Source: an uncultured Gammaproteobacteria bacterium (lineage in GTDB: Bacteria > Patescibacteriota > Microgenomatia > 2-02-FULL-39-11). From it: a DNA stretch of 64,000 nucleotides. A model generated the notes under the pieces. That model was not told the origin of the DNA, searched no databases, and saw only the letters and a program-made list of their open reading frames with translations. The stretch lies in NCBI GenBank assembly GCA_964544585.1, contig CAZJBV010000002.1, positions 131,468 through 195,467 of the forward strand, given 5' to 3'. Positions 4,113-64,000 of this stretch are shown here, one piece after another (position 1 is the stretch's first letter; every line of letters begins with the position of its first letter). The translations under genes were made by a program, and so were the position numbers.

Positions 4113-5055
4113 CTTCGGCCCAAAACTTAAAGAAAATATCTCCCTTTCCTCATATACAACTATACAGTTGGGAGGACGCGCTAAATACTTCATTGAGGTC
4201 GAGGGAGTTGCAGAACTTAAAGACACGCTTCTCAAATCTATTCGTTCTCAAATTCCTTATTTCATTCTTGGTGGTGGTACAAATACTCTTATAAAAGATG
4301 AAAGGTTTGCCGGTCTAGTCATCCGCAACAAAAGCGGCAATATAAAAATAGTTGGCTTTAGAGGATCATTTAGAGACAACAAGTCAAATATCAAAGATAT
4401 CTATCTTGAAGTAGATTCTGGCGTTTTAGTAAATAGGCTGGTTCGCTTTTGCCTGGAAGAGTCTTTTGCCGGGTTGGAAAATTTTTTCCACCAGCCAGGC
4501 ACCGTCGGAGGTGCCGTCTATATAAATGCCCATAATATTGGTCAAAATGACTATTTTGGTAGTCATATCTTTGAAGCGAAGTTGATTACCAAAGAAGGGA
4601 AAGAAAAAAAAGTAGATAGGTCATATTTTAAATTCGGCTATGATTCTTCAACCATTCAAAAAACAAAAGATATAGTCCTCAGCGTATCTTTAAAATTGCA
4701 AAAAGGAGAAAAAAATTCATTATGGCAAAAAGCTTCTTTAGTTGCGGAATATAGAAAAAGTTCCCAACCTCAAGGAGTCAGAAGTCTAGGCTGCACCTTT
4801 AGAAACATTACCAAAGAAGAGGCATTCCGCTTGCATACCCCATCTTATACTCAATCGAGTGGGTATCTAATCGAAAGTGCAGGCCTCAAAGGCTACCAAA
4901 TTGGAAAATCTCGTTTTTCAACTAAACATGCAAACTTTATCGAGCATCTAGGTGGAGGCCACGCTTCTGATGTGCTACAATTAATAGCTCTAGCAAAGGA
5001 AAAGATAAAATCAAAATTCGGTGTAGATTTAAAAGAAGAGATAGTTATCATCTAG
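4093..5055 (+). CDS. murB: UDP-N-acetylenolpyruvoylglucosamine reductase
   Basis: SYTTIQLGGRAKYF, the FAD-binding region and the MurB C-terminal domain are present. The ORF-track start is 4069, but the in-frame ATG at 4093 avoids overlap with murC. Confidence 0.75.
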   Translation: MNILKNNFGPKLKENISLSSYTTIQLGGRAKYFIEVEGVAELKDTLLKSIRSQIPYFILGGGTNTLIKDERFAGLVIRNKSGNIKIVGFRGSFRDNKSNIKDIYLEVDSGVLVNRLVRFCLEESFAGLENFFHQPGTVGGAVYINAHNIGQNDYFGSHIFEAKLITKEGKEKKVDRSYFKFGYDSSTIQKTKDIVLSVSLKLQKGEKNSLWQKASLVAEYRKSSQPQGVRSLGCTFRNITKEEAFRLHTPSYTQSSGYLIESAGLKGYQIGKSRFSTKHANFIEHLGGGHASDVLQLIALAKEKIKSKFGVDLKEEIVII

Positions 5056-7777: not shown

Positions 7778-9544
7778 ATGTGCGGAATCTTTGGTTATGT
7801 AGGCAAAAATAAAAATGCCGGAGATCTCGTCCTTGAGGGCCTTCGCATCCTCGAATATCGAGGCTATGATTCCTGGGGTATAGCCACCTTAAATAATTCT
7901 TCTATAAAAATTACCAAAAAAGCCGGTAAAATTCCCCAATCAAAAATAAAATTTAACTCCTCGCCAATTGCGCTTGGTCATACCCGCTGGGCCACACACG
8001 GAGGAGTCACAGACATAAATGCTCATCCCCATCTTGACTGTACCGGAAATCTGGCCATCATCCACAACGGCATCATCGAAAACTATGACCAATTAAAAAA
8101 AACCCTTTCCCATTCCAATCATCGATTTTCTTCCGAAACCGATACCGAAATTGCCATTCACCTCATCGAATCATATAAAAGATCTGGCCTTTCCTTTCGC
8201 GAGGCAGTTCGCAAGGCTTTCAACCAATTTGAAGGCCTAAATGCCATCATCGTCATCGACGCCGAAACCAAAACCTTTATTGCCGCCAAAACCGGTTCTC
8301 CCCTTGTTGTTGGTCGTGGAAAGGGCGAAGGAAATTATATCGCTTCCGACGCTCCAGCCCTCATCAAACACACAAATATTCTTCATTTTGTGGAAGACGG
8401 CGAAATGATTGAAATGAACTCTATCGATATTAAATGCTTCGATCAAAAAACCGGCCGTCCAAAATCTCTTAAATGGCAAACGATTCACTGGAAATTCGAA
8501 TCAATAGACAAAGGTAAATATCCACATTTCATGCTCAAAGAAATTTATGAGCAGCCAAAAGTCATAAAATCAATTTTAAACCAGGGTGAGTCGACCATAA
8601 AAGACCTAGGCAAACTAATTAAACACTCATACGGCACTTACCTCGTAGCCTGTGGTACCGCAGCCTACGCTGCTCTTGCTGGCACATACCTTTTTTCTAA
8701 AATTGCCAAGCGTCACGTCAACTACACCGTCGGCAGCGAATTTGGATACCAGCTCGATTTTTTGAAAAAAGGAAGTTTGGTTATCGCCCTTTCCCAGTCT
8801 GGTGAAACCATCGACGTTATCGACGCGGTCAAAAAAGCAAAGGAACAGGAAGCCACAATTTATGCATTAGTAAATACCCTAGGTTCTACCCTTTATCGCA
8901 TGGCAGACTACAAAAGCCTTCTTCTTGCTGGCCCTGAAAAAGCTGTTGCTTCAACCAAGGCCTTCACCGCCAAACTCACTTATCTTATCCTTTTAGCATA
9001 CGCCCTTGCCGAAAGTCACAATAAAGGAAAAAAACTGGTTGAAAAGGCTATAATAGCGACCAATTTTATTTTCCAACACGAAATTGAAAATATCAAAAAT
9101 ATTGTCAAGGATATATTTAGGAGTCAGCACATTTATGCCATCGGTAGAGGACTAGCCTATCCAATAGCCCTCGAAGCTGCTCTCAAAATAAAAGAGATTT
9201 CCTACATTCACGCCGAAGGGATGGCCAGTGGTGAATTAAAGCATGGCCCAATTGCCCTAGTAGAGGAGGGAACACCTTGTATCGCCTTTCTACCCGACGA
9301 CGAGACTTATGGAGCCAATCTAGCTGGAGCCATGGAAATGGAGGCAAGAGGCGCCAAAATTATTGGCATTTCATTCAAAAACCACGAAGTCTTTGACTAT
9401 TTTATAGAGGTGAAAGATGCTGGTCCGGCTAGTATTATTCCCGAAACCATCGCAGTCCAACTTTTAGCATATTATCTATCCATCGCCCGCGGCCTCGACC
9501 CAGACAAACCAAGAAACCTCGCCAAATCCGTCACCGTCAAATAA
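7778..9544 (+). CDS. glmS: Glutamine--fructose-6-phosphate aminotransferase
   Basis: N-terminal MCGIFGY Ntn-amidotransferase start and two SIS domains. Only 40 nt of upstream spacer, so no room for a glmS ribozyme. Confidence 0.9.
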   Translation: MCGIFGYVGKNKNAGDLVLEGLRILEYRGYDSWGIATLNNSSIKITKKAGKIPQSKIKFNSSPIALGHTRWATHGGVTDINAHPHLDCTGNLAIIHNGIIENYDQLKKTLSHSNHRFSSETDTEIAIHLIESYKRSGLSFREAVRKAFNQFEGLNAIIVIDAETKTFIAAKTGSPLVVGRGKGEGNYIASDAPALIKHTNILHFVEDGEMIEMNSIDIKCFDQKTGRPKSLKWQTIHWKFESIDKGKYPHFMLKEIYEQPKVIKSILNQGESTIKDLGKLIKHSYGTYLVACGTAAYAALAGTYLFSKIAKRHVNYTVGSEFGYQLDFLKKGSLVIALSQSGETIDVIDAVKKAKEQEATIYALVNTLGSTLYRMADYKSLLLAGPEKAVASTKAFTAKLTYLILLAYALAESHNKGKKLVEKAIIATNFIFQHEIENIKNIVKDIFRSQHIYAIGRGLAYPIALEAALKIKEISYIHAEGMASGELKHGPIALVEEGTPCIAFLPDDETYGANLAGAMEMEARGAKIIGISFKNHEVFDYFIEVKDAGPASIIPETIAVQLLAYYLSIARGLDPDKPRNLAKSVTVK

Positions 9545-9548
9545 CATC

Positions 9549-10350
9549 CACCTTAGAGGTGTCCCAGATAGGACACCTTTGGTAAATATTACGATTCCAA
9601 AGTCAAATGTTTAATTGCAGCCAATCTTTTCTGGTAGTCTTTCTGATCTAAAGTAAATTCTTTGAAATCCTCAATGCTTTTAAAATACGATAAAATATCC
9701 TGCTTATGAACCAGGGGCTTACTTTCATTATTATCATTTAAAAACAGAGGCAGTGAAGAATACGGATAATTTAAGAGATCTTCTGTAGATTTAACAATAT
9801 ATGATGTATATGGATTTAGGTGAATGTATCGTGTAACGTGCATATATTGCTCATCGGATTCTATTAATACAGCCTTAAATTTTCCTTGAAATATTGGTCC
9901 ATACGTTTCATTTTTGACATTTAAGAAACGAGTATACCCATTTGAAATATTCCCGACAAATTTTGCTATACCATTATTCTTAATTTGTTGAAGAAGTAGA
10001 TGGAAATGACTAGGCATAAGACAGAAAGCATGGATTCTCACAATATAATCTTTTTTATTTAATAAATTTAAATATATACTTTCTCTTTGATCTCTACTTA
10101 ATTTTAGAAATCTAGAATAACGTAATGGGATGCTGGAAAACTGATAATAAAATAGTAGCTCAAGAAAACGACCATAACTTCTATTATTTATAAACACTTG
10201 CTGCCCATACGTACCCCGATTAAATACGTGATATATCTGATCCGTAATGAGAGGAATATTTCTTCCAGGCATAATATAAATATAGAGTTTATTTACCAAA
10301 GGTGTCAATAGAAATACACCTTAGAGGTGTATTAGCTAGGACACCTGGCT
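9549..10350 (-). mobile_element. IS200/IS605-like or REP-associated (RAYT-like) element: a Y1 HUH transposase gene between two subterminal hairpins
   Basis: Direct repeat caccttagaggtgt lies on both sides (9549-9562 and 10317-10330). Each repeat is followed by a hairpin: aggtgtcc-cagata-ggacacct at 9556-9577 and aggtgt-attagcta-ggacacct at 10325-10346. Transposase CDS 9589-10308 lies between. Confidence 0.6.
9589..10308 (-). CDS. Y1 (HUH) transposase, IS200-like / REP-associated tyrosine transposase-like
   Basis: YHVFNRGTYGQQ N-terminal motif and the HuH motif PSHFHLLL. Flanked by hairpins. Confidence 0.6.
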   Translation of the reverse strand: MTPLVNKLYIYIMPGRNIPLITDQIYHVFNRGTYGQQVFINNRSYGRFLELLFYYQFSSIPLRYSRFLKLSRDQRESIYLNLLNKKDYIVRIHAFCLMPSHFHLLLQQIKNNGIAKFVGNISNGYTRFLNVKNETYGPIFQGKFKAVLIESDEQYMHVTRYIHLNPYTSYIVKSTEDLLNYPYSSLPLFLNDNNESKPLVHKQDILSYFKSIEDFKEFTLDQKDYQKRLAAIKHLTLES

Positions 10351-29862: not shown

Positions 29863-29914
29863 CACCTCGGATGGTGGCAGTCCGCCATCTAGCGGACATG
29901 ACTCCTCCGAGGTG
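29863..29914. repeat. GC-rich palindromic element at the lepB 5' end
   Basis: cacctcggatggtgg ... ctcctccgaggtg arms (9-bp stem) with a nested ccgcc..gcgg palindrome in the loop. Confidence 0.65.
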
Positions 29915-49644: not shown

Positions 49645-51009
49645 ATGAATCAAATCCTCATTCTTCTCGGCAAAATCATTTCTGCCCTCAGTAAAATTAC
49701 CAACCTTGGTAGTGGTAGCACCTGGCCGGGTGAAATAGCGTTAATAACAAATCCAAATATTTTGGCTCATTTTTTTAACAAAGTAAAAAAAGGAATCATT
49801 ATAATCGCCGGCACAAATGGTAAAACCACTACCGCAAAAATGGTTCAAGAAATGATAAGCTCACAGTATCCCATAGACACTATAGTTCACAACGATTCAG
49901 GTGCCAACCTCTTAAACGGCATAACTTCAGCCTTTATAAAAAAGGCCAAAATTATTACGAACAGTTATTTTGACTGGGCAGTCTTGGAAGTCGACGAAAA
50001 TACTCTTCCCATTTTACTTAAATATCACCTCAGCCATAAAGACACCTCGGATGGTGTGCGCATAAAGACACCTCCGAGGTGGCCCGCCCGCCTGCCGGCA
50101 GGCAGGGAAGGGACTCCTCGGATGGTGGAGAAACCAGCAAAGCCCAAAATTGTCATTGCCCTTTTAAATCTTTTTCGCGACCAGCTCGATAGATATGGAG
50201 AGGTAGATACCATTGTCTCAAAATGGTTGTCTGCCCTCAAAAATTATTTGGGAAAAGTCAATCTCATTACCAATGCCGATGATCCCACCATTGCCTACAT
50301 GGGTCTTTCTTGTCAAAAGAATGTCACTTTTTTTGGTATAGACAAGGCAAAAGGCATAAAAGAAATAGAGCATGCTACAGACTCCATCTTTTGCCCGCTA
50401 TGTGGACATAAATTAAGTTATGAGGCCGTCTATTATTCTCATATAGGTAGATGGGCTTGTCCATCATGCAACCTTAATCGTCCTAAAATCCAAACCGCAA
50501 GTATAAAAACCAAATTACCAGGTCTATACAATTTTTATAATACACAATGCGCCGTATTAATTGCTCAAACAATCGGAATAAAAGAATCTAATATAAAGTC
50601 AGCTCTCCAAAATTTTACCCCCGCCTTTGGCCGCCAAGAGGAATTCAGCATCAATGGTAAAAAAATTAAAATCTTCCTCTCCAAAAACCCAGTCGGCTTC
50701 AATGAATCTCTAAAAACTGTCATCGATCTCGGCGCCAGGCAAGTGCTTCTCGTTTTAAACGATAGGATACCCGACGGCCGCGACGTCTCCTGGATTTGGG
50801 ACGTAGACTTTGAAATAATTCCTGAAAACACCCAAATCATAGCTTCAGGAGAAAGATGCTATGACCTTGCCCTCCGCCTCAAATACGCAGGCAAAAAATT
50901 TGAAATAGAAAAAGACTTGAGAAAATCCATCCAGTCAGATTATATTTTGCCTACCTATTCGGCCATGCTCGAAGTTCGAAAAATTTTGACGGGCAAAAAA
51001 ATTCTTTAA
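49645..51009 (+). CDS. murT: Mur-ligase-like lipid II isoglutaminyl synthase subunit MurT, carrying a palindromic-element insertion
   Basis: Mur ligase P-loop IIAGTNGKTTTA, Cys4 ribbon CPLCGH…CPSCN, and a DUF1727-like C-terminus. Element at 50041-50129 encodes [31 protein letters not shown] in frame. Confidence 0.65.
   Translation: MNQILILLGKIISALSKITNLGSGSTWPGEIALITNPNILAHFFNKVKKGIIIIAGTNGKTTTAKMVQEMISSQYPIDTIVHNDSGANLLNGITSAFIKKAKIITNSYFDWAVLEVDENTLPILLKYHLSHKDTSDGVRIKTPPRWPARLPAGREGTPRMVEKPAKPKIVIALLNLFRDQLDRYGEVDTIVSKWLSALKNYLGKVNLITNADDPTIAYMGLSCQKNVTFFGIDKAKGIKEIEHATDSIFCPLCGHKLSYEAVYYSHIGRWACPSCNLNRPKIQTASIKTKLPGLYNFYNTQCAVLIAQTIGIKESNIKSALQNFTPAFGRQEEFSINGKKIKIFLSKNPVGFNESLKTVIDLGARQVLLVLNDRIPDGRDVSWIWDVDFEIIPENTQIIASGERCYDLALRLKYAGKKFEIEKDLRKSIQSDYILPTYSAMLEVRKILTGKKIL
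50041..50129. repeat. GC-rich palindromic element, long form
   Basis: gacacctcggatggtg-tgcgcataaa-gacacctccgaggtgg-cccgcccg-cctgccggcagg-cagggaaggga-ctcctcggatggtgg. Confidence 0.85.
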
Positions 51010-51026
51010 CTACCAAACTACAAACT

Positions 51027-51854
51027 ATGAACTACAAACTAACTATCGGCTGGCTCTATCCTGATTACATGTCGACCTATGGAGATCGTGGTAATATTAT
51101 TTGTCTGACCAAACGATGCCAATGGAGAAAAATTAATGTCGAAATTAAGAAAATAGAATTTGAAACACTCCCACAAGAAATCGATTCTTGCGATTTGATT
51201 ATCGGCGGCGGAGCCCAAGATAGGCAACAGGAATTGGTGGCAAAAGATCTTTTAAAGAAAAAAAATATTTTTAGAATATTATTTAATAGGGGAGTGCCAG
51301 GTCTTTTTGTCTGCGGCTCTCCCCAACTTCTTGGTCACTATTACATGACAGGGGATGGGAAAAAATTGGCAGGCCTAGGAATTTTCGACTATGTTACCAA
51401 GCATTTCGGACATGACAAACCCCGCTGCATCGGCAACACAGTCGCAAAAGTCATCGGCATAAACACCTCGGATGGAAAGACACCTCCGAGGTGGCCCGCC
51501 CGCCTGCCGGCGAGGCAGGAAGGGACTCCTCGGATGGTGGAAGGATCACAAACCATCGTCGGTTTTGAAAATCATGGTGGTAGAACATATTTAGGCTCCA
51601 GCGCAAATCCCTTTGCCAAAGTTTTAGCTGGCTATGGCAATAATGGGGAAGATGGATACGAAGGCGCAATCTACAAAAATGTCATCGCCTGCTACTACCA
51701 CGGCCCCTTTCTTCCCAAAAATCCCCATATTGCAGATTGGCTTCTTACCCGCGCACTTGAAGTCAAATACAAAAAAGTTATACAATTGGGACCTCTCGAT
51801 GATGGACTTGAATGGCAAGCGCATGATTTTATATTAAATAGGGTCAGACCTTAA
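51027..51854 (+). CDS. gatD: CobB/CobQ-type glutamine amidotransferase GatD (lipid II isoglutaminyl synthase glutaminase subunit), carrying a palindromic-element insertion
   Basis: LYPDYMSTYGDRGNI N-terminus characteristic of GatD. Catalytic Cys in FVCGSPQLLGHY. Sits directly downstream of murT. Element at 51463-51542 encodes [27 protein letters not shown]. Confidence 0.65.
   Translation: MNYKLTIGWLYPDYMSTYGDRGNIICLTKRCQWRKINVEIKKIEFETLPQEIDSCDLIIGGGAQDRQQELVAKDLLKKKNIFRILFNRGVPGLFVCGSPQLLGHYYMTGDGKKLAGLGIFDYVTKHFGHDKPRCIGNTVAKVIGINTSDGKTPPRWPARLPARQEGTPRMVEGSQTIVGFENHGGRTYLGSSANPFAKVLAGYGNNGEDGYEGAIYKNVIACYYHGPFLPKNPHIADWLLTRALEVKYKKVIQLGPLDDGLEWQAHDFILNRVRP
51463..51542. repeat. GC-rich palindromic element, long form (core variant cctgccggcgaggcagg)
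   Basis: aacacctcggatgg-aaa-gacacctccgaggtgg-cccgcccg-cctgccggcgaggcagg-aagggactcctcggatggtgg. Confidence 0.85.
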
Positions 51855-55950: not shown

Positions 55951-57357
55951 ATGTTAGTTGATTTATCCATAGAAGAACTCTCAAAAGGGTTGAAAGAAAA
56001 GAAATTTTCCTCGGTAGACATTCTCAAAGAATGTATTGCCAATATAGGCCGTTTGAATCCATCACTAAATGCATTTATTACTCTACGTGATGAAAAAGAC
56101 CTTTTAGCCGAAGCTCGTCAAAAAAATAAGGAACGTACAACGGAAAGTTCTATCCTCCACGGTCTGCCATACGTCATCAAAGATGCATATAACACCTCGG
56201 GTCTTAGAACAACCGCTGCCTCAAATGTCTTAAAAGATTATATTCCTCCCTATAGCGCTACTGTCTACCAAAAACTTCAGGATGCCGGAGCAATTCTTTT
56301 AGGCAAAACCAATATGGACGCCTGGGGACACGGCGCATCATCTGAAAATACTGACTTTGGGCCAGTTAAAAATCCGTGGGATTTATCGCGAGTCGCAGGT
56401 GGCTCAAGTGGAGGAAATGCGGCGGCAATCGCAACTGGCATGGCAGTCTTTGGCATCGGTGAAGATACTGGAGGTTCAATTCGAAATCCATCTGGCTGGT
56501 GTAATATAACGGGTTTGAAAGTAACCTATGGTAGAGTTTCGAGATACGGCTGTATCGCCTACGTCTCATCGTTTGACACCATGGGTCCTATGGCAAAAAC
56601 ATCAGAAGATTGTGCTCATATTTTAAAAGCCATTGCCGGATTCGATCCCTACGATGCCACCAGTTCCAATAAAGGCGTGCCAGACTATGGAAAAATTATC
56701 AGACAAAATTTGAAAAAAATAACCATCGGCATGCCCAAAGAATTTTTTGGCAGGGGAGTGGATCATGAAATTATAGATCTTATTAAAAGTGCAACCATAG
56801 AATTTCATAAAATGGGACACGAAATAAAAGAAATTTCTATGCCCATGCTTGCTTTTGGCGTACCCGTCTATTATCTCATAGGAACAAGCGAGACAAGTAC
56901 GAATTTAGCAAGATACGACGGAATAAGATATGGAAACGGTAGAGACCAATTTACCAAAGAAACCATGCGCCGCATCATGCTCGGAACTTACGCCCTTTCG
57001 GCTGGATATTACGATGCTTATTATAAAAAAGCCCAACAAGGCAGAACTCTTTTTATCAAAGAATATCAACAGGCTCTATCAGAATGCGATGTTATTCTCA
57101 TGCCAGTCGAGCCAATGGCCGCGACAAAAATAGGAGAATTAATCAACAATCCCATTCAAAATATGCTAGCAGATATTTTCACCTGTCAAACGCCTGTTGG
57201 AGTTCCCTCGATTGCTCTCCCTTGCGGTTTTACCAAAGAAAAATTACCAGTCGGCATGCAACTTATAGGCAATATGTTTACAGAAGACTTGCTACTCCAG
57301 CTAGGCTACTCATATCAGGAGCGTACCGATTGGCATAAGATAAAACCAAATCTATGA
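55951..57357 (+). CDS. gatA: Asp/Glu-tRNA(Asn/Gln) amidotransferase subunit A
   Basis: Amidase signature [15 protein letters not shown] with the Ser-cisSer-Lys triad region. The start is moved to the ATG at 55951 just after the gatC stop. Confidence 0.85.
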
Positions 57358-58883
57358 ACAATTACGAACCAATAATTGGTCTTGAAATTCACGTCGAACT
57401 AAAGACCAAATCAAAAATGTTCTGTGGTTGCAGGGCCGATTGGTTTGGTTTGCCCCCAAATTCCAATACTTGCCCTGTTTGTCTAGGTCTACCTGGTGCA
57501 CTTCCGGTTCCCAACAAAAAAGCAGTCGAATGGTGTATCATGCTCGGCCTTGCCCTAAATTGCCAAATCCCCGAAACATCTAAATTTAATCGAAAAAATT
57601 ATTTTTACCCCGATCTTCCCAAAGGTTATCAGATATCACAATACGATCAACCCCTTGCGATAAATGGATGGTTGGAAATAAATAAGCCACAAGACACCTC
57701 GGATGGTGGCGAAGCAACGACTTCGACTCCTCCGAAGGTGCGAAGGGACCGGAAAAGAATAGGCATCACCCGCGTCCACATGGAGGAAGATACAGGCAAA
57801 CTTCTCCATGCCAAAGTCGAGGGTTCAAACGTTTCCTTAGTCGATTTTAATAGAAGCGGCGTCCCTCTCGTCGAAATAGTTACAGAACCTGACATAAGAA
57901 GTAGTGAGGAAGCTCGAACTTTTCTTAAAAAACTCCACCAAATAATTCGCTACTTGGGTATTTCCGACGCCGATATGGAAAAAGGCTCCATGCGCCTCGA
58001 GCCAAATATCTCTCTCCGAAAAAGAACAGGCGACAAAGACACCTCGGACGGTGTCCGCCAGCCGGCGGACTCCTCCGAGGTAAAGACACCTCCGAGGTGG
58101 CCCGCCCGCCTGCCGGCAGGCAGGGAAGGGACTCCTCGGATGGTGGAGGAAGCATTACCAAACTATAAAGTCGAAGTCAAAAATATCAACTCATTTAATT
58201 TTGTTAAAAAAGCAATCGATTTTGAATTAGAGCGCCATACGGATATTTTAGAAAGGGGTGAGTTGCCTATACAAGAAACTCGCGGCTGGGACGAAAAAAA
58301 AGGCATAACATATTCTCAAAGATCAAAAGAAGAAGCCCACGACTACCGCTATTTTCCCGAACCAGATATTCCTCCAATGAGATGGGGAAAAGAGCAAATA
58401 TCAAAAATCAAAGATCAAAAACCCGAACTTCCCGATGCTAAAATAAAAAGATTTATCAAAGATTATAAGTTGTCAGAATACGACGCAACAATTTTGACAG
58501 ACGAAAAATCAACCGCTGACTATTTCGAAAAAGCCTTAAAGACACCTCGGGGGTGGCCGAATGGACTCCCCCGAGGTGGAGAGACCGGAATAAACCCCAA
58601 AACCATCGCCAATTGGATTATAAACAAACGGATTGATACATCAAGGATTTCGCCAGAAGAACTCATCAAATTGATAACAAGTAAAACACAAACTATTCAA
58701 ATAGATGAAAAAGAATTGGAATCAATCATCAAAAGAGTCCTCTCTCAAAACCCCAAAGCCGTCTCCGACTACAAAGCCGGAAAACAACAAGCTATAATGT
58801 TTCTAGTCGGCCAAGTAATGCGAGAAACCAAAGGAAAAACTGATGCGAAAAAGATAAAAACAAAGCTAAAAAATATGATATAA
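57354..58883 (+). CDS. gatB: Asp/Glu-tRNA(Asn/Gln) amidotransferase subunit B, interrupted in frame by three palindromic elements
   Basis: N-terminus [23 protein letters not shown] and the C-terminal YqeY/GatB tail. Insertions at 57693-57740, 58038-58148 and 58541-58579 are all in frame. Confidence 0.85.
57693..57740. repeat. GC-rich palindromic element (short arm-only form with a nested cgaag..cttcg hairpin)
   Basis: gacacctcggatggtgg-cgaagcaacgacttcg-actcctccgaaggtg. Confidence 0.7.
58038..58148. repeat. Composite GC-rich palindromic element: an arm-only unit followed by a full long-form unit
   Basis: gacacctcggacggtg-tccgccagccggcgga-ctcctccgaggt-aaa-gacacctccgaggtgg-cccgcccg-cctgccggcagg-cagggaaggga-ctcctcggatggtgg. 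Confidence 0.85.
58541..58579. repeat. Short-form GC-rich palindromic element; same loop as the 19067 copy but with a co-varied stem
   Basis: gacacctcggggg-tggccgaatggact-cccccgaggtgg. The stem cgaagg/ccttcg in the 19067 copy is cggggg/cccccg here. Confidence 0.75.
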
Positions 58884-58893
58884 TCAGCTTAGT

Positions 58894-59118
58894 ATGAAAA
58901 AACTTCAGAAATTACCAGCAAATTATGATTTTTTCATTAAAACAGACACATCATCTTATAAAGGTGAATGGATTGCAATTACCGGTAAGAAAATTATATA
59001 TCACGGTAAAGATGCTCAAGAAGTCTACAGAAAAGCAAAGCAAAAATATCCAACTGCCAATGTTTCACTCGCCAAAGTTCCCGACGAGCAAATTCTGATA
59101 TTAAGATTCTCCCAATGA
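58894..59118 (+). CDS. Small hypothetical protein (74 aa), probably co-transcribed with the downstream aspartic protease
   Basis: 4-nt overlap with the next ORF. No assignable motif. Confidence 0.4.
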   Translation: MKKLQKLPANYDFFIKTDTSSYKGEWIAITGKKIIYHGKDAQEVYRKAKQKYPTANVSLAKVPDEQILILRFSQ

Positions 59119-59522
59119 TTATTTTCCGCTATAAAGAAGAACCATCTGGCAAGAAAAACGAACTAATCAAAAGACCAATTGCTGATATATATATTAGAAG
59201 CAAATCCGGGCCCTGGATAGAATTTCATCCCTATATAGATTCAGGTGCGGATGTCACTCTTATCCCTCTGACTCTCGGAAACCTTATTGGACTAAAAGTT
59301 GATGAAAAGAAAATTGAACAAATAGGAGGCATTAGAGGTAGTGTTCCTGCCATTTATTCTCAAGAAAAAATACGAATTGGAGACAATATACTCTCAGCTC
59401 GCATCGCTTGGGCCTTAATTGAAGAAGTTCCACCTCTCCTCGGACGCACTGATATCTTTGATAGTTTCCATGTCACTTTCAAACAAAACCAAGGAATAAT
59501 TATTTTCGATGAACGAAAATAA
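59115..59522 (+). CDS. Retropepsin-like (clan AA) single-domain aspartic protease
   Basis: Catalytic motif YIDSGADVTLIP (D-S-G-A) and the flap-like LLGRTDIFDSFHVTF. Confidence 0.6.
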   Translation: MIIFRYKEEPSGKKNELIKRPIADIYIRSKSGPWIEFHPYIDSGADVTLIPLTLGNLIGLKVDEKKIEQIGGIRGSVPAIYSQEKIRIGDNILSARIAWALIEEVPPLLGRTDIFDSFHVTFKQNQGIIIFDERK

Positions 59523-59669
59523 TTACCCAAAGCCATCTCCGACTACAAAGCCGGCAAAGTTAAAGTTATAATGTTTCTAGTCGGTCAGGTAATGAAAGAA
59601 CTCAAAGGGAAAGGAAACGCAGGAGCGATTAAAGAGAAATTATTAAATTACTTATCAAAATATGGATAG
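59523..59669 (+). pseudogene. Orphan duplicate of the gatB 3' end (no start codon)
   Basis: Encodes [32 protein letters not shown]…* . About 85% nt identity with gatB 58752-58836 ([29 protein letters not shown]). Confidence 0.7.
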
Positions 59670-60360
59670 ATTTGGCGGCGAGCGCAGATATCGCCCAATT
59701 CCTCCAAATAAAGAAGCACTTATAAAAACTAGAATTCAGGCCTTAACTCCTAGAGTAGCCTCCTTAAGACAACGATTGCAGAATGGAGAATTGTTACCAG
59801 AAAGATTCGATGAAAATATAGTTAGGATGATTGTGGCGAGAGAGCTTTTAACAGAAAGAGCTAAATTAAGAGACTTAATTGACGATAAAACTCAACTTCC
59901 CAATTCAAAATGGTTTGGACGAGAACTTCAAGAAAGAATAGAGAGAGTAAAAAAAGAAGGAGGATCAATAGGAATAATTATGCTTGATATTGACAATTTT
60001 GGAGAAATAAATAAAAGGATTGGGCAGCAAGCTGGAGATGAAGTTTTACGTCAAGTAGCCTTGCAAATTGAACTTAATACTAGACTTGAAGATTTCCCCG
60101 CAAGGTGGGGCGGAGAAGAATTTATAGTCATTACAGAAGTAGAAGATCCACAAATACTTAAAGATATTAGTGAGAGAATAAGAAAAGGTGTTGCTGAAGG
60201 GAGTTATGGAAATGCTGGTTCACAATCAGTTAGTATGGGCGGTACCATTTACACAGATGGAGAGAGAGCAGAAGATTTTATTCAAAGAGCCAATAATGCA
60301 ATGATATTATCGAAAAATACAGGCAAAAACAAAGTTTCTATACCTGAACTGGGTAAATAA
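59662..60360 (+). CDS. GGDEF-domain diguanylate cyclase (no sensor domain)
   Basis: IMLDIDNFGEIN… and the active-site motif RWGGEEF. Confidence 0.7.
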   Translation: MDRFGGERRYRPIPPNKEALIKTRIQALTPRVASLRQRLQNGELLPERFDENIVRMIVARELLTERAKLRDLIDDKTQLPNSKWFGRELQERIERVKKEGGSIGIIMLDIDNFGEINKRIGQQAGDEVLRQVALQIELNTRLEDFPARWGGEEFIVITEVEDPQILKDISERIRKGVAEGSYGNAGSQSVSMGGTIYTDGERAEDFIQRANNAMILSKNTGKNKVSIPELGK

Positions 60361-60388
60361 ATATGAACAAAGCATCGTAATTCATTTT

Positions 60389-60442
60389 ATGTCTGATTTT
60401 GTTCACCTTCACTGCCATCCAGAATATTCAATGTACAGTTAA
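60389..60442 (+). pseudogene. Orphan duplicate of the dnaE 5' end (17 codons then stop)
   Basis: atgtctgattttgttcaccttcactgccatccagaatattca… matches the dnaE start at 61121 (atgtctgattttgttcatcttcactgtcattcggaatattca…) with 4 substitutions. Encodes MSDFVHLHCHPEYSMYS*. Confidence 0.7.
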
Positions 60443-60535
60443 ACAAACTATAGGATATTGACAAATCCTACCATTATGGTAATATGTGATGACTAAACTC
60501 TCCTGCAACACCGCAAGGTCTTTGCAGGATTTTTT

Positions 60536-61117
60536 TTGGCCAACTCATGTATAATAAGTCTGATGAAGCAGGAAAGATGTATAATTCTTGTTGATGGCAG
60601 TAACTTCTATTTTAAACTCAAGGACCTAAATCTCCATCGATTAATTAATTTTGATTTCTCCAGTTTCTCAAAAACATTGGCAGGAGATAGACAACTTACC
60701 TACGCCACATATTATATTGGCGCAGTACGGAGTGATAATACTAAAAAGACACAAAAATTATTCAATCAACAGCGTAAATTACTCAACCATCTAAGAAAAC
60801 ATAATTTTAAATACTCTTTAGGATATCTTTTGAAATCCAACGGTCGGTTTCGTGAGAAGGGTGTAGATGTGAATATAGCCGTCGATATACTAGTTTCTGT
60901 ATATGAAAATCTTTGTGATTATATAATCCTGGTTTCTTCAGATACCGATCTTCTTCCTGCAATCAAAAAAGCAAAAGAGAAAGGGAAAACCGTAGAATAT
61001 ATAGGGTTTTCCCATAGACCGAGTATTGCTATGGTAGCAAATTGTTCAAAGTCAAGGTTGTGGACAAAAGAAGATCTTTTACCTTTTATAAGAAAGGCAA
61101 ATAAACAGAAAAAATAA
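60536..61117 (+). CDS. NYN-domain (LabA/PIN-like) putative ribonuclease, paralogue of 42621-43133
   Basis: CIILVDGSNFYFKLKDL… and ILVSSDTDLLPAIKKAKEKGKTVEYIGF. Confidence 0.6.
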   Translation: MANSCIISLMKQERCIILVDGSNFYFKLKDLNLHRLINFDFSSFSKTLAGDRQLTYATYYIGAVRSDNTKKTQKLFNQQRKLLNHLRKHNFKYSLGYLLKSNGRFREKGVDVNIAVDILVSVYENLCDYIILVSSDTDLLPAIKKAKEKGKTVEYIGFSHRPSIAMVANCSKSRLWTKEDLLPFIRKANKQKK

Positions 61118-61120
61118 GCT

Positions 61121-64000
61121 ATGTCTGATTTTGTTCATCTTCACTGTCATTCGGAATATTCACTTTTGGACGGACTTTCCAAGATTCCAGACTTACTCGT
61201 CCGCACCAAAGAACTGGGTATGGATTCCCTCGCCCTTACAGATCATGGCGCCATGTATGGCGCCATCGAATTTTATACCAAAGCAGAGGATGCAGGCATA
61301 AAGCCAATTATTGGCATGGAGGCATACCAAGCGGCTCGATCCAGATTTGATAAAGAAGCTGGCCAAGACCGCGATCAGTACCACCTCGTCCTTCTCGCCA
61401 AAAACAAAACCGGCTATCACAATCTTATTAAACTGACAACCCTCTCCCACTTGGAAGGTTTTTATTATAAACCCCGCATCGACATGGATTTATTACGGGA
61501 GTATAAAGACGGACTCATTGCCCTTTCAGGCTGCATGAATGGGTTGATCCCGAGTCTTCTTCGCGATAATCAAATTGATTCCGCCGAAAAAAAAGCCTTA
61601 GAATTCTTGGAAATTTTTGGCAAAGACCATTATTATTTTGAAATCCAAAAGCACTCCAAAATACCAGAACTCGATAAAATCAATGATCAATTAATTACCC
61701 TTTCGCGAAAACTTGGTATTCCCCTCGTTGCTACAAATGATGCTCATTATCTCACCCCGGAAGATGTCGAGGCCCAGGAAATTTTACTTTGTATAGGCAC
61801 ACAAAGAACAATCCTCGAAAAAAATCGACCCCTGTCTATGATCTCATCTCCCGATTTTTATCTTCGTTCGGCAGAAGAGATGAAAGGCCTTTTTTTAAAG
61901 CATCCCGAGGCAATAGAGAATACTAAAAAAATTGCCGAGCTTTGTAATTTGGAAATAGATCTTGGCAACTGGATTCTGCCTCATTTTACCGTTCCGCCTG
62001 ATTTTACCGCCAATACATACCTCAAAAAACTTGCCTTTGATGGGGGTAAGATGCGCTTTGGAAAAATCACCGATGAAATAAAGCAAAGGTTGGATTATGA
62101 ATTGGAAATTATCGCCCATAAAGGCTACTCGACATATTTTTTGGTCGTTGCCGATTTCGTTAACTGGGCCAAGGAAAAAGGCATCGCCGTTGGTCCAGGC
62201 AGAGGTTCAGCAGCCGGAAGCCTGGTTGCTTACTGCATGCGCATTACCGATCTCGATCCTCTATTTCATGAACTTCCCTTTGAAAGATTTTTAAATCCCA
62301 ATCGCCCCTCCCCTCCGGATATTGATTTGGATTTTGCCGACAATCGTCGCGACGAAGTCATTGAGTACGTTACCCATAAATATGGCCAAGACAAAGTAGC
62401 CCAAATAATAACCTTTGGTACCATGGAGGCTCGCCAGGCCGTCCGCGATGTAGGTAGAGCCCTCGGCATGCCCTACGCCCAACCCGACAGAATAGCTAAA
62501 TTGATCCCCATAGGGGCCCAAGGATTCCCCATGACCATAGAAAAGGCTCTCGAGCTATCTCCCGAATTATCTTATGCCTATCAACACGAGGCAGACACAA
62601 AGCGCCTGATTGATCTGGCACGCAAACTCGAGGGGGTCGCTCGCCACGCCTCCGTCCACGCCGCCGGCGTGGTCATCGCCGATAAGCCTCTTACTCAATA
62701 TGTACCCCTGCAAAAAGAAACCAAAGGAGACAGAGTCATTACTCAATACGATATGTATTGTCTCGATCTCAATGCTGCGGGAGGAGGAAAAGCAGTCGGC
62801 CTTCTTAAAATGGATCTATTGGGGCTAAGAAACCTCTCCATTTTGGAAAAGGCTGTCAAATTTGTTAAAGATAGCCGTGGGGTAGAGGTCGATTTTCACA
62901 GCATCCCGCTCGATGAAAAAAAAGCCTACGAAATCATTGCCTCCGGAGAAACGACGGGTATTTTTCAACTAGAATCACCTGGCATGCGTCGACTAGCCAA
63001 AGACCTCAAGCCCACCAAATTTACAGATATCTCGGCCATGGTTGCCCTTTTTCGTCCCGGGCCCATGGATTGGATACCCATTTTTATCGAAGCCAAGCAA
63101 AATCTAAAAAAAATAAAATACCCTCACGAAGCCCTAAAACCGATTCTCTCAGAAACCTATGGTATAGCAGTCTATCAGGAGCAATGTATGCAGATAGCCC
63201 ACGTTATGGCAGGTTATTCCCTCGTTGAAGCAGATAAATTGAGAATGGCCATAGGCAAAAAAAAGCCGGAGGTAATGAAAAAGGAGAAGGAGAAGTTTAT
63301 CTCAGGATGTATCAAGCAAGGATACTCAAAAAGTGTAGCCGAAAACGTCTTTTCACTTATAGAAAAATTTGCCGGCTACGGCTTCAACAAAGCCCACAGT
63401 GCCTCTTACGGCATGATTGCTTATCAGACCGCATATATGAAGGCCAAATATCCCATAGAATTTATGTGCGCAGTTTTGGCAGCCGAATCTCATGGATCGG
63501 GTCCAGCCCGAGATGAGAAAGTCGCCCAAGCCGTCATGGAGTGCAAAAGAAATAATATCCCTCTCCTTCCGCCCGACATAAACAATTCGGATAGCGATTT
63601 TACTATCGAAAACCTGCCTGCCCGTCCGGCAGGCGGGCCTGCCGGCAGGCAAGGAGAAAAAATTCGCTTCGGCCTCTCAGCCGTCAAAAACGTAGGCACA
63701 GCCGCAATCGACTCTATTCTTTCCGCCCGCATAAAAGGAGGACTTTTTGTTTCTTTAACCGATTTTATCTCCCGCGTCGATCTCCAAAAGGTAAATAAAA
63801 AAACTCTTGAAAGCCTCATCAAAGCAGGGTGTCTTGATAGATTTGGCAAAAGGGCAAGTTTACTTGCCGCCATACCCCAGTTTGTTGAAATTGCCCACAA
63901 AAGACAAAAAGAATACGAATCAGGCCAGGCAAGCCTCTTTTCCGATGAAGAAACTTCGACCGTTATCGATGTATTGCCCGAACTGGACGAATTTTCCCAA
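61121..64000 (+). CDS. dnaE: DNA polymerase III alpha subunit, 5' part; runs off the window end. Carries a palindromic-element-derived insertion
   Basis: PHP domain start MSDFVHLHCHSEYSLLDG and polymerase core motifs (GPGRGSAAGSLVAYC, PDIDLDF). Hand translation found no stop through position 64000. Element at 63603-63650 encodes NLPARPAGGPAGRQGE. Confidence 0.85.
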   Translation, partial: MSDFVHLHCHSEYSLLDGLSKIPDLLVRTKELGMDSLALTDHGAMYGAIEFYTKAEDAGIKPIIGMEAYQAARSRFDKEAGQDRDQYHLVLLAKNKTGYHNLIKLTTLSHLEGFYYKPRIDMDLLREYKDGLIALSGCMNGLIPSLLRDNQIDSAEKKALEFLEIFGKDHYYFEIQKHSKIPELDKINDQLITLSRKLGIPLVATNDAHYLTPEDVEAQEILLCIGTQRTILEKNRPLSMISSPDFYLRSAEEMKGLFLKHPEAIENTKKIAELCNLEIDLGNWILPHFTVPPDFTANTYLKKLAFDGGKMRFGKITDEIKQRLDYELEIIAHKGYSTYFLVVADFVNWAKEKGIAVGPGRGSAAGSLVAYCMRITDLDPLFHELPFERFLNPNRPSPPDIDLDFADNRRDEVIEYVTHKYGQDKVAQIITFGTMEARQAVRDVGRALGMPYAQPDRIAKLIPIGAQGFPMTIEKALELSPELSYAYQHEADTKRLIDLARKLEGVARHASVHAAGVVIADKPLTQYVPLQKETKGDRVITQYDMYCLDLNAAGGGKAVGLLKMDLLGLRNLSILEKAVKFVKDSRGVEVDFHSIPLDEKKAYEIIASGETTGIFQLESPGMRRLAKDLKPTKFTDISAMVALFRPGPMDWIPIFIEAKQNLKKIKYPHEALKPILSETYGIAVYQEQCMQIAHVMAGYSLVEADKLRMAIGKKKPEVMKKEKEKFISGCIKQGYSKSVAENVFSLIEKFAGYGFNKAHSASYGMIAYQTAYMKAKYPIEFMCAVLAAESHGSGPARDEKVAQAVMECKRNNIPLLPPDINNSDSDFTIENLPARPAGGPAGRQGEKIRFGLSAVKNVGTAAIDSILSARIKGGLFVSLTDFISRVDLQKVNKKTLESLIKAGCLDRFGKRASLLAAIPQFVEIAHKRQKEYESGQASLFSDEETSTVIDVLPELDEFSQ
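63603..63650. repeat. Degenerate GC-rich palindromic element (two adjacent core palindromes) inside dnaE
   Basis: cctgcctgcccgtccggcaggcgggcctgccggcagg. Contains the exact cctgccggcagg core. Confidence 0.6.

Follow-up and report, generated by a model that had tools for sequence, protein, structure and literature searches.

The window, as we call the whole 64-kb stretch of DNA analyzed here, contains an intact gatB gene (509 aa; positions 57354–58883, + strand), the putative insertion target, whose open reading frame matches the Pfam models GatB_N (E = 6e-111) and GatB_Yqey (E = 5e-18). Ten nucleotides past its stop codon (spacer 58884–58893, +) begins a gene of 74 aa (58894–59118, +), which belongs to the DUF5678 family (Pfam PF18929, E = 2.8e-16, above the curated cut-off) and overlaps by 4 nt (ATGA) a gene of 135 aa (59115–59522, +) with a DSGA motif. 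Both reading frames and the motif had been pointed out in a sequence-only reading of this DNA, and are confirmed here. A promoter scan of the spacer returned nothing promoter-like; because 10 nt is too short for a promoter, the cassette (0.63 kb) probably shares a transcript with gatB.

Downstream of the two cargo genes lies a second copy of the gatB 3′ end (59526–59669, +), comprising 47 codons and a stop and still recognized by GatB_Yqey (E = 3e-10). The head of this orphan tail has no start codon, the first ATG being at 59571. Positions 59526–59612 are 84% identical to 58752–58838 over 87 nt, close to the ~85% given in the sequence-only reading, and weaker similarity continues to both stops, for a repeat length of 87–132 nt; the left copy (58752–58883, +) is the tail attached to the working gene. 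At the protein level, the two tails show 67% identity over 43 residues, and a flank-versus-flank blastn comparison gives E = 1.5e-20. Across the 64-kb window and ~0.9 Mb from other gatB loci, just three such short-range repeats were found, and two of them fall in the same 3-kb stretch of the window. The stop codon of the orphan overlaps (ATGGATAG, 59662–59669) the start of a GGDEF diguanylate-cyclase gene (59662–60360, +; Pfam GGDEF, E = 1.3e-33), and the NCBI record annotates a 44-aa gene on the orphan itself. The NCBI MAG GCA_016186845.1 shows the same junction of cassette, orphan and GGDEF gene, as do Logan assemblies made independently from five sequencing runs, which rules out an assembly artefact.

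A perfect 12-bp inverted repeat, TAATTATTTTCG / CGAAAATAATTA with loop ATGAA (59497–59525, strand not assigned; MFE –11.3 kcal/mol, z = –6.0), runs across the protease stop and terminates right at the orphan-tail junction. As a family-wide recombination site this hairpin was rejected, since z < –2 was found in only 3/53 cassettes (mean z –0.56). Likewise discarded was a read-through fusion of protease and orphan: the orphan keeps the reading frame of the protease in the window and locus L134, whereas in L174 the two are out of frame. An Rfam scan of 58500–61400 gave no match at E ≤ 1. GC and GC3 are alike for the tails, cargo and neighbouring genes, making composition uninformative.

Farther downstream, a second cassette has the same architecture as the first, duplicating in this case the 5′ end of dnaE. 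Its left repeat is an orphan dnaE 5′ end (60388–60442, +; MSDFVHLHCHPEYS, three codons and a stop; 43 nt at 91% identity), and its right repeat is the true dnaE start (61120–61162, +; ATG at 61121), which begins 2 nt past the stop of the cargo gene. That gene encodes an NYN-domain protein of 184 aa when read from the ATG of the NCBI record (60563–61117, +; Pfam NYN, E = 7e-20; PADLOC HEC-09, E = 3e-17), and the promoter scan found a promoter-like TTGACA-16-TAATAT ahead of it at 60458–60485. In the source contig, dnaE is called as a protein of 1071 aa with PHP and DNA_pol3_alpha domains.

The cargo genes

DUF5678 is encoded directly upstream of the protease gene in 82 of 90 homologue loci, and a protein search found more than 480 homologues of the pair. 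Its AlphaFold model (pLDDT 73) has a small beta-beta-alpha-beta fold, for which a fold search returned no PDB match, nuclease-like folds included. Zero matches were obtained against NCBIfam, PADLOC and PHROGs, and a literature search on DUF5678 function found none. We consider the protein a candidate partner or antitoxin of the protease.

For the 135-aa protein, the AlphaFold model (pLDDT 86) is matched by Foldseek with probability 1.00 to HIV-1 PR, EIAV PR, Rickettsia APRc and Ddi1, at TM-scores of ~0.5–0.7, and residues D42, S43, G44 and A45 are invariant across 21 homologues. Judging by the model, the protein is of the retropepsin fold, with the D-S/T-G-A motif. In the HMM search that had been proposed for both proteins, DUF5678 scored above its cut-off and the protease families stayed below the Pfam gathering thresholds (Asp_protease_2, 16.9 against 24.3 bits; RVP, 16.2 against 20.7; gag-asp_proteas, 13.9 against 28.2); PADLOC gave a weak match to PDC-M52B (E = 2e-4). 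Searches of Pfam, NCBIfam, PHROGs and folds detected no nuclease in either protein. Two small co-directional genes with a 4-nt overlap, found as a unit in diverse genomic contexts, form a layout like that of type II toxin-antitoxin systems. Searches of Pfam and NCBIfam linked the pair to none of the established toxin and antitoxin families; it is most likely a toxin-antitoxin-like addiction or defence module.

Empty sites and the two tails

The sequence-only reading had suggested looking for empty sites in related genomes, and these exist: gatB is followed directly by the GGDEF gene in seven Microgenomates loci (L008, L011, L015, L016, L017, L020 and L021) and, after 46 nt, in L179, the closest gatB relative (73% aa identity). 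In such cassette-free relatives, all of them other species (at most 73% aa identity) rather than sibling strains, the gatB stop usually overlaps the GGDEF start (ATGGATGA in L008), and the gatB tail, repeated over more than 30 bp in the window, is single-copy. When an empty site was sought at the population level, all contigs with an identical GGDEF protein (5/5) carried the cassette. These comparisons support the view that the cassette was inserted between gatB and its native neighbour GGDEF, and that the downstream tail is the displaced end of gatB.

The tail now attached to gatB in the window is of a short type, termed alpha, which ends in KLKNMI and a stop. An alpha tail (KLK.M[IL] and a stop) with a spacer of 9–15 nt stands upstream of DUF5678 in the window, L175, L182 and L183; the closest gatB body, that of L179, has a tail of another type, and there the cassette is absent.

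Signals as to which tail is native conflict. The overlap with GGDEF points to the right end of the orphan as native, whereas the closer homologues favour the attached tail: of the 20 top-ranking gatB homologues, 19 end in a tail that resembles it more than the orphan; scoring on 80 species-level gatB loci was tied, 39 versus 38. We could reconcile these signals only by a model with a chimeric crossover or a close-relative donor, and any assignment of the foreign tail is tentative. The closeness of the attached tail to relatives fits that model, yet was no prediction of it. No identity jump at the junction was seen on comparing the window with L182, L183, L175, L176 and L179, the segments being ~55–77% identical at the nucleotide level. 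Among the gatB-linked cassettes sampled, tail and cargo alike are ~70–77% identical in nucleotides, and no recent donor was found; it is possible that gatB and cassette have long been inherited together vertically.

Divergence between the two copies is informative about their origin. We estimated dN/dS by the Nei–Gojobori method; an orphan evolving neutrally since a local duplication predicts a value of at least 0.5. For the tails in the window, dN/dS is 0.44 (dS 0.65), a value that, taken alone, would still be compatible with a local duplicate that has since decayed. Elsewhere in the family the ratio is far lower: 0.022 in L174, 0.038 at uvrA in L134 (85 codons, dS 0.62), 0.11 in L184, 0.15 in L105, 0.19 in L176 and 0.20 in L183. 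In L089, 13 codons are identical in amino acids and carry six synonymous nucleotide changes. The mostly synonymous differences in the best cases (dN/dS 0.02–0.2) argue for alleles of different lineages rather than a decaying local duplicate. They support the idea that the two tails are such alleles, as would be expected had incoming DNA supplied one of them.

Recurrence at other loci

A right repeat begins no more than 25 nt after the protease stop in 11/52 cassettes, compared with 3/157 mock positions on the same contigs (Fisher p = 1.8e-5). An earlier test, which counted any flank similarity, gave 19/58 cassettes versus 4/169 shuffled pairs. The flanking repeat is absent from ~40/52 cassettes. 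The cassette family occurs at no fewer than nine target genes, each with its own duplicated end, on both strands and in one instance at a 5′ end. The targets, conserved housekeeping genes, are gatB, rplA, iPGM, NAD(P)H-hydrate dehydratase, UvrA, ATP-dependent DNA ligase, a radical-SAM gene, a class II aaRS (5′ end) and a membrane protein. Repeat lengths by locus are ~31, 34–50, 40, 46, 51, 75, 87–132, 90, 113 and 261 nt, and the copies are 84% identical in the window and 80–91% at other loci, with divergence of the synonymous type. Two other short-range repeats were encountered in gatB loci, one due to tandem paralogues (L018) and one of 128 nt (L039).

The cargo-side junction is tight: in 9–10 cases it lies 0–9 nt past the stop, and in L176 it falls inside the gene, among its final 20 nt. 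The window and L183 have one junction point and the ATCTCCGACTAC motif at the left end of the orphan in common, their last cargo genes being different; the junction points of L176 and L184 are unlike theirs. Identical runs occur at or near the left edge in the window (9 and 19 nt) and in L174 (32 nt), whereas the longest run in L134 is toward the right, and no crossover core motif common across loci was seen. A conserved left end or spacer was considered and dismissed, as spacers of unrelated sequence range from 0 to 90 nt (with an outlier of 318 nt in L156) and the left terminus is undefined.

The gatB slot also receives other, toxin-antitoxin-like cargo. In L183 it holds DUF5678 with DUF4258/DUF2283, and in L184 a HigB/HigA-like pair, an orphan tail being present in both; the slot and its duplication are independent of cargo type. 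The same gene order does occur with no duplicated tail in one relative (L175), a finding that had been expected to speak against insertion, alongside three relatives with orphans. Nor do the orphans amount to a conserved independent small gene, since their length, start and parent gene vary.

In agreement with the sequence-only reading, we found no integrase among the window ORFs scanned: Pfam searches of 36 ORFs, among them all 20 unidentified ORFs of integrase size, revealed no tyrosine or serine recombinase. The sole mobility gene met in the window, an IS200-like Y1 transposase (9589–10308), is 49 kb away. The same reading had proposed a search for a recombinase near the cassette. Among 106 ORFs flanking 32 cassette loci none was recurrent, no family appearing more than twice and the recurrent ones being housekeeping, and none was found within 5 kb in the annotated neighbour tables of cassette loci.

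Proposed mode of spread

We put at about 60% the probability that the cassette is horizontally acquired cargo residing in a slot at the gatB 3′ end, a case of 'insertion with long target duplication' that is spread by homologous recombination. The upstream tail copy completes the working gatB, and the downstream copy would be the displaced tail, its last codons still joined to GGDEF. That one gene end arrived with incoming DNA, its counterpart being left behind, had already been proposed from the sequence; the empty sites, the retained GGDEF overlap and the allele-like tails support it. The left arm of the unit would end at the gatB stop and the right arm would begin at PKAISDY, 43 codons upstream of the stop. 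Because the cargo would thus be flanked by overlapping pieces of one conserved gene end, homologous recombination could carry the unit. After DNA uptake, the unit (tail end, spacer, cargo and partial tail) might enter a related genome via gatB homology alone. Integration would re-create the duplication, leaving one donor-type and one largely native tail; an integrase would be unnecessary, and cargo could be exchanged between the arms. The recombination route we infer is of the RecA type, with natural transformation, and the model would apply to the spread of existing units rather than to the first duplication event. Against recombination alone stands the very tight cargo-side junction, which it leaves unexplained.

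A broader version of this reading, which we advance tentatively, treats such loci as 'knock-in' cassettes that target themselves and need no nuclease. With selfish toxin-antitoxin or defence cargo set between overlapping pieces of one conserved gene end, the unit might be integrated by the homologous recombination of any related cell taking in such DNA, regardless of gene order, and the duplication might be regenerated at every transfer. The ends of conserved housekeeping genes, gatB among them, might then serve CPR bacteria as reusable slots for trading accessory genes with no need of integrases, transposases or plasmids.

Other explanations account for some of these observations. Conceivably, each event was an independent case of homology-facilitated illegitimate recombination, in which linear donor DNA was anchored on one side in the conserved gene and had its other end joined illegitimately slightly upstream of that anchor, thereby producing the duplication, the arms not being self-propagating. 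Such events are documented in transformable bacteria and have been invoked for orphan arrays (PMC5361080; PMC4615327). The targets are conserved genes that might serve as anchors, the recipient-side junction varies (window and L183 versus L176 versus L184), and L175 is orphan-free. However, variable donor DNA would be expected after the cargo, whereas the orphan nearly always begins 0–9 nt past the stop, and the window and L183 share a junction despite their different last cargo genes. While we think this unlikely as a general account, it could well describe the first event within the recombination model. Somewhat more doubtful is site-specific integration, with an att core in the gatB 3′ end, either by an integrase-bearing element or by a cis-mobilizable, integrase-less remnant served in trans. 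Elements that integrate into the 3′ ends of tRNA or protein genes bring a replacement end with them, and the old end survives beyond the element as a partial duplicate; they depend on a dedicated recombinase of the tyrosine or serine type and on a single cognate target, and integrase-less, cis-mobilizable derivatives exist. The replacement-end layout is seen here, the order of body, new tail, cargo and old tail resembling attL plus attR at protein-gene targets, and one can add the junction point common to the window and L183 and the short identical runs near the left edge of several repeats. But an associated recombinase is absent from the scanned window ORFs, from the 5 kb around the cassettes and, as a recurrent gene, from the 106 flanking ORFs. 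Moreover, one cassette family uses at least nine targets on either strand, one of them a 5′ end, the repeats range from 30 to 261 nt, the L176 and L184 junctions differ, and unrelated cargo occupies the same slot. All of this speaks against the proposal in the sequence-only reading that the cassette is a remnant of a site-specific integrase element.

We give little credence to a purely local origin, in which the gatB tail was duplicated in tandem or segmentally and then decayed or was converted, with no horizontal input, or in which the orphan is a selected small gene. The window value, dN/dS 0.44, would fit partial relaxation, the L183 copies are ~95% identical over a central 80 nt, suggesting gene conversion, and a 44-aa gene is annotated on the orphan. 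Yet in six other cases dN/dS is 0.02–0.2 at dS 0.4–1.1, which is impossible for a neutral copy, and the alpha-type tail is linked to cargo across lineages. Orphans also derive from many parent genes, vary in length and do not consistently carry a start codon or ribosome-binding site. Least probable, in our estimation, is a self-mobile cassette, in which DUF5678, the retropepsin-like protein or both would cleave or join DNA like the endonuclease of a mitochondrial mobile ORF. Mitochondrial mobile ORFs have this same gene-hybrid architecture (PMC3630166), the right end is tightly defined, and DUF5678 is without known function. On the other hand, the modelled protease shows a plain retropepsin fold together with the protease motif, DUF5678 has 74 aa and no nuclease-like fold match, and HigBA-like and NYN cargo show the duplication in the absence of DUF5678 and retropepsin.

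Relation to known systems

How CPR bacteria (Patescibacteria) gain accessory genes is poorly understood, because their genomes are tiny, few mobile elements are recognizable in them and there is almost no genetics. CPR bacteria (Saccharibacteria) are naturally competent (PMC10633639). Of the systems compared, the best match is the 'insertion with long target duplication' known from restriction-modification (RM) genes, a mode attributed to Nobusato et al. (2000, Gene 259:99) by Furuta et al. (2010, NAR; PMC2853133). As described there, RM complexes are inserted with variable duplications of >30 bp, without mobility genes, and mostly in naturally competent species. Common to those cases and ours are a small selfish or addiction-type complex with no mobility gene and direct duplications of >30 bp and variable length, derived from sequence that is single-copy at empty sites; some RM duplications overlap gene 3′ ends, as at gatB. 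In contrast, the cargo here is DUF5678/retropepsin, other toxin-antitoxin-like pairs or an NYN gene, and the hosts are CPR. The repeats here are 70–91% identical with differences of the synonymous type, whereas the RM copies are nearly identical (44/46, 417/423). The repeats here also lie systematically at the ends of housekeeping genes, one slot taking different cargo.

Two further systems leave displaced gene ends. Fungal mitochondrial mobile-ORF hybrids (Allomyces atp6; Glomus atp6, atp9, cox2 and nad3; PMC3630166) have the order seen here, namely gene body, inserted C-terminal part, mobile ORF and displaced native C-terminal remnant. Their C-terminal copies are diverged in nucleotides and conserved in amino acids, which was interpreted as horizontal transfer (PMC3630166). 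Unlike the bacterial chromosomal cassette, they owe their mobility to an encoded homing endonuclease of the LAGLIDADG or GIY-YIG type. [quoted passage not shown] In these polymorphic toxin loci the displaced part has a different function, whereas the cassettes here duplicate a conserved housekeeping-gene end and carry their cargo as an operon of its own.

If the recombination model is true, a recombinase-free route would move addiction or defence cassettes between species by DNA uptake followed by homologous recombination at duplicated conserved gene ends, and would explain stray gene-end fragments in CPR genomes. It would extend 'insertion with long target duplication' past RM systems and link it to the fungal mitochondrial gene hybrids. 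A gene end that is directly repeated in homeologous form and abuts a small cargo gives a signature searchable genome-wide, and the uncharacterized DUF5678/retropepsin pair would be a mobile two-gene module, a candidate for toxin-antitoxin or defence activity.

The cargo protease, for its part, has relatives in fold. Bacterial retropepsin-like aspartic proteases such as APRc, and the RVP domains of Ddi1, have the fold and the D-S/T-G-A catalytic motif in common with it. APRc of Rickettsia (PDB 5c9f) is a membrane-embedded enzyme that processes autotransporters, whereas the window protease is soluble, has 135 aa, is similar in sequence at a sub-Pfam level and is usually paired with DUF5678 (82/90).

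The gatB locus

The working gatB gene (57354-58883, plus strand) is followed, ten bases past its end, by the start of a gene for a 74-aa DUF5678 protein (58894-59118, plus strand; Pfam DUF5678, E=2.8e-16), which overlaps in an ATGA with a gene for a 135-aa protease carrying an invariant D-S-G-A motif (59115-59522, plus strand). Three bases past the protease stop, the C-terminus of GatB is repeated by 47 codons that lack a start codon (59526-59669, plus strand; Pfam GatB_Yqey, E=3e-10). This orphan tail, as opposed to the tail attached to the working gene, is 84% identical over 87 nt to 58752-58838, with weaker similarity onward to both stop codons. The sequence-only reading had described a duplicated gatB end beside a two-gene cassette, and the ORFs, Pfam matches and repeat alignment bear out all its features. 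The same structure is present in an NCBI MAG (GCA_016186845.1, Candidatus Gottesmanbacteria, CPR/Patescibacteria) and in assemblies made independently from five sequencing runs, which rules out an assembly artefact.

Spanning the protease stop is a perfect inverted repeat of 12 bp with a 5-nt loop (59497-59525; z=-6 versus shuffles), which ends exactly at the orphan-tail junction; it is missing from most other cassettes. The NCBI record names the product of 58894-59118 (P0241) 'succinyl-CoA synthetase subunit alpha'. We found nothing to support this name, Pfam and NCBIfam giving DUF5678 alone, and the label is probably a misannotation.

Empty sites and the displaced tail

The cassette is absent from all 80 species-level gatB loci examined. 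In seven Microgenomates loci a GGDEF gene lies directly 3′ of gatB, usually with the gatB stop and GGDEF start overlapping (ATGGATGA in L008; ATGA in L011, L016 and L017). In the window, the overlap with the GGDEF start (ATGGATAG, 59662-59669) is kept by the orphan tail and not by the working gatB. The locus with the closest gatB found (L179, 73% aa identity) reads gatC, gatA, gatB, 46 nt, GGDEF, and is an empty site. By sequence comparison, the cassette is an insertion and the downstream tail a displaced gatB end.

Duplicated gene ends as a recurrent footprint

We compared the 400-600 nt on either side of each cassette. For 11 of 52 cassettes, the flanks shared a direct repeat with its right copy starting at most 25 nt from the protease stop, versus 3 of 157 mock positions on the same contigs (Fisher P = 1.8e-5); a separate flank-similarity test gave 19/58 cassettes versus 4/169 shuffled pairs. 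Where the repeat is clear, its right copy begins 0-9 nt past the protease stop; its left copy finishes at the neighbouring gene's stop (or start) codon, leaving 10-90 nt to the DUF5678 ATG. What is duplicated is the end of a conserved housekeeping gene, namely one for GatB, ribosomal protein L1, iPGM, NAD(P)H-hydrate dehydratase, UvrA (261 nt), an ATP-dependent DNA ligase, a radical-SAM enzyme or a membrane protein; at one locus it is the 5′ end of a gene for a class II aminoacyl-tRNA synthetase. Target genes lie on either strand; for minus-strand targets (L089, L105), the copy attached to the gene is the one adjoining the protease stop.

The gatB slot accepts different cargo

The nearest relatives of the window's cassette likewise lie 3′ of gatB. 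In L175 (protease 80% identical in aa) the order is gatB, 15 nt, cassette, with no orphan tail; in L176 (protease 77%) the orphan starts about ten codons later than in the window and reaches into the last protease codons. We predicted a cassette behind those gatB homologues that share the window's short alpha tail (...KLK.M[IL]*), and found one at both homologues looked up, L182 (gatB, 9 nt, DUF5678, protease) and L183. At the latter (cargo region 3245-4147), gatB, 9 nt and DUF5678 are followed by a DUF4258/DUF2283 pair in place of the protease, and an orphan gatB tail lies 10 nt past this pair; its start point is that of the window's orphan, with ATCTCCGACTAC at the left end of both. In L184 (4596-5345), a HigB/HigA-like pair (Gp49 and HTH_3) lies 17 nt past gatB and precedes an orphan tail with 83% identity over 87 nt. 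Because L183 and L184 carry different cargo in the same slot with an orphan tail, the slot and the duplication are independent of the cargo.

A second cassette in the window (60388-61162), an NYN gene between an orphan copy of the dnaE 5′ end and the real dnaE start, shares this architecture and supports cargo independence. The orphan copy comprises the first 14 dnaE codons (60389-60430), then 3 codons and a stop; the repeat (left copy 60388-60430) is 43 nt long and 91% identical. The NYN-domain gene (60563-61117; PADLOC HEC-09, E=3e-17) is preceded by a spacer with a promoter-like TTGACA-16-TAATAT site, and the true dnaE start (61121) lies 2 nt past its stop. L179 has a different 231-aa gene, of unassigned family, between GGDEF and dnaE. 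In a Moraniibacteria gatB neighbourhood (L039), a 128-nt direct repeat (507-634 and 1265-1392; 91% identical, 758 nt apart) lies in a region with no clear genes and may be another long-duplication insertion.

Origin of the two copies and a possible mechanism

If one copy had drifted neutrally since duplication in place, dN/dS between the two should be at least about 0.5. Nei-Gojobori estimates were 0.022 for the radical SAM gene of L174 (dS 1.0), 0.038 for uvrA of L134 (85 codons; dS 0.62), 0.15 for iPGM of L105 (dS 1.65) and, for gatB, 0.11 in L184 (dS 1.08), 0.19 in L176 (dS 1.59), 0.20 in L183 (dS 0.44) and 0.44 in the window (dS 0.65). The L089 copies share all 13 codons at the amino acid level, with six synonymous nucleotide changes. 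Both copies therefore served as ends of functional genes through most of the time they diverged and came together only afterwards; they are alleles of different lineages. The window's own value does not settle the matter: conservation of the GatB tail is low, and decay of the orphan may already have begun.

Some repeats are mosaic. In L134 (4576-4660), the 261-nt uvrA duplication contains an uninterrupted run of 54 identical nucleotides near its 3′ end, the remainder being about 85% identical, and the L183 gatB tails are about 95% identical over a central 80 nt and diverged at both ends. These patterns suggest crossover or gene-conversion tracts within the repeats.

The sequence-only reading had proposed site-specific integration, with the cassette as a possible remnant of an integrase-bearing element. 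Its picture of a gene end arriving with the cargo, the displaced native end being left behind, agrees with our data. The integrase does not: no tyrosine or serine recombinase was found among 36 window ORFs scanned, including all integrase-sized ORFs without prior identification, and no recombinase recurs among 106 ORFs flanking 32 cassettes, where no Pfam family occurs more than twice and the recurrent ones are all housekeeping. Classical att-site integration also fails on two defining features, with no recombinase among the ORFs scanned and many targets.

We propose instead that the transferable unit would consist of an alpha-type tail end, a short spacer, the cargo and the left portion of an orphan tail. 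Its two arms would derive from one gene end and overlap from the junction point (PKAISDY...) to the stop. Two crossovers with a naive gatB, one of them in the body or tail and the other in the tail, would bring in the cargo and re-make the duplication, leaving a donor-type attached tail and an orphan with a native right part. DNA uptake and RecA-type recombination would be required, all steps being inferred; natural competence has been demonstrated in CPR Saccharibacteria (PMC10633639). The first event at each new gene could have been homology-facilitated illegitimate recombination. Such overlapping arms would explain why the GGDEF overlap is native, why alpha tails go with the cargo, why the window and L183 share a junction point, why the copies have diverged homeologously, how cargo is swapped and why no recombinase is found; they do not account for how tightly the junction sits on the cargo side. 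In the window, tails of close gatB relatives match the attached tail better than the orphan in 19 of the top 20, and no recent donor was found among the sampled lineages, identity being about 70-77% throughout. We put the probability that this self-propagating mechanism operates at roughly one in three; if demonstrated, it would give the finding greater significance.

Among bacteria, the nearest precedent is 'insertion with long target duplication' (PMC2853133), in which restriction-modification complexes, small addiction modules without mobility genes, insert with variable duplications of >30 bp that in some cases overlap gene 3′ ends; most examples come from competent species. Its features are seen here save repeat identity, our repeats being 80-91% identical and homeologous. 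Architecturally, the gatB cassette is closest to the mobile-ORF gene hybrids of fungal mitochondria, with the order foreign C-terminus, ORF, native C-terminus (PMC3630166), although those ORFs encode homing endonucleases. The orphan 3′ ends of T6SS/Rhs/CDI loci (PMC5361080) are a looser parallel to the orphan gatB tail. New here are the cargo family, the bacterial group, the homeologous arms and the reused slot at a conserved gene end.

The cargo module

A protein search returned 488 protease homologues, mostly unnamed Patescibacteria proteins (58-80% identity), and a DUF5678 gene lies immediately upstream of the protease gene in 82 of 90 loci, in surroundings that vary (L11/L1 operon, ParE pair, purD, uvrA and others). 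Pfam aspartyl-protease matches fall below cut-off; the AlphaFold model (pLDDT 86) resembles HIV-1 and EIAV proteases, Rickettsia APRc and Ddi1, which justifies the label 'retropepsin-like'. In its layout and its scattered distribution the pair resembles toxin-antitoxin or defence modules, and it shares the gatB slot with recognised toxin-antitoxin types. Since it has no homology to known toxin-antitoxin families, only a weak match to PADLOC candidate PDC-M52B (E=2e-4), and we found neither a fold match for DUF5678 nor literature on it, we infer rather than identify an addiction or defence module.

At one locus (L092, 4347-4814), an ORF with a GIY-YIG domain (155 aa) overlaps the DUF5678 gene start. 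GIY-YIG enzymes power the mobility of free-standing homing endonuclease genes; this ORF may lie there by coincidence, or it may be a clue to how the cassettes were first inserted.

Palindromic units and a Y1 transposase-like gene

GC-rich palindromic repeat units (GACACCTCSGAKG ... GACTCCTCGGATGG; >62% GC in a genome of 39% GC) are inserted in frame within protein-coding genes of the window: in gatB (57690-57745, 58035-58146 and 58537-58580), a MurT-like gene (50038-50129) and a CobQ/GatD-like gene (51476-51541), with further units near 29900, 30436 and 37254. They add stretches to GatB, one of 39 residues, and the third gatB insert is missing from the L176 gatB. The units are reminiscent of Rickettsia palindromic elements and may be REP-like; close to them, breaks occur in several short-read assemblies of this genome. 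Directly after glmS lies an IS200-like Y1 / REP-associated tyrosine transposase-like gene (9589-10308, minus strand, region 9536-10346; NCBIfam NF047646, E=2.5e-13; Pfam Y1_Tnp, E=8e-7), with a direct repeat of 43 nt (79% identical) on its flanks; the repeat takes in the final 9 nt of glmS as well as palindromes (CACCTTAGAGGTG). The gene or its repeat may have a connection with the GC-rich units described above.
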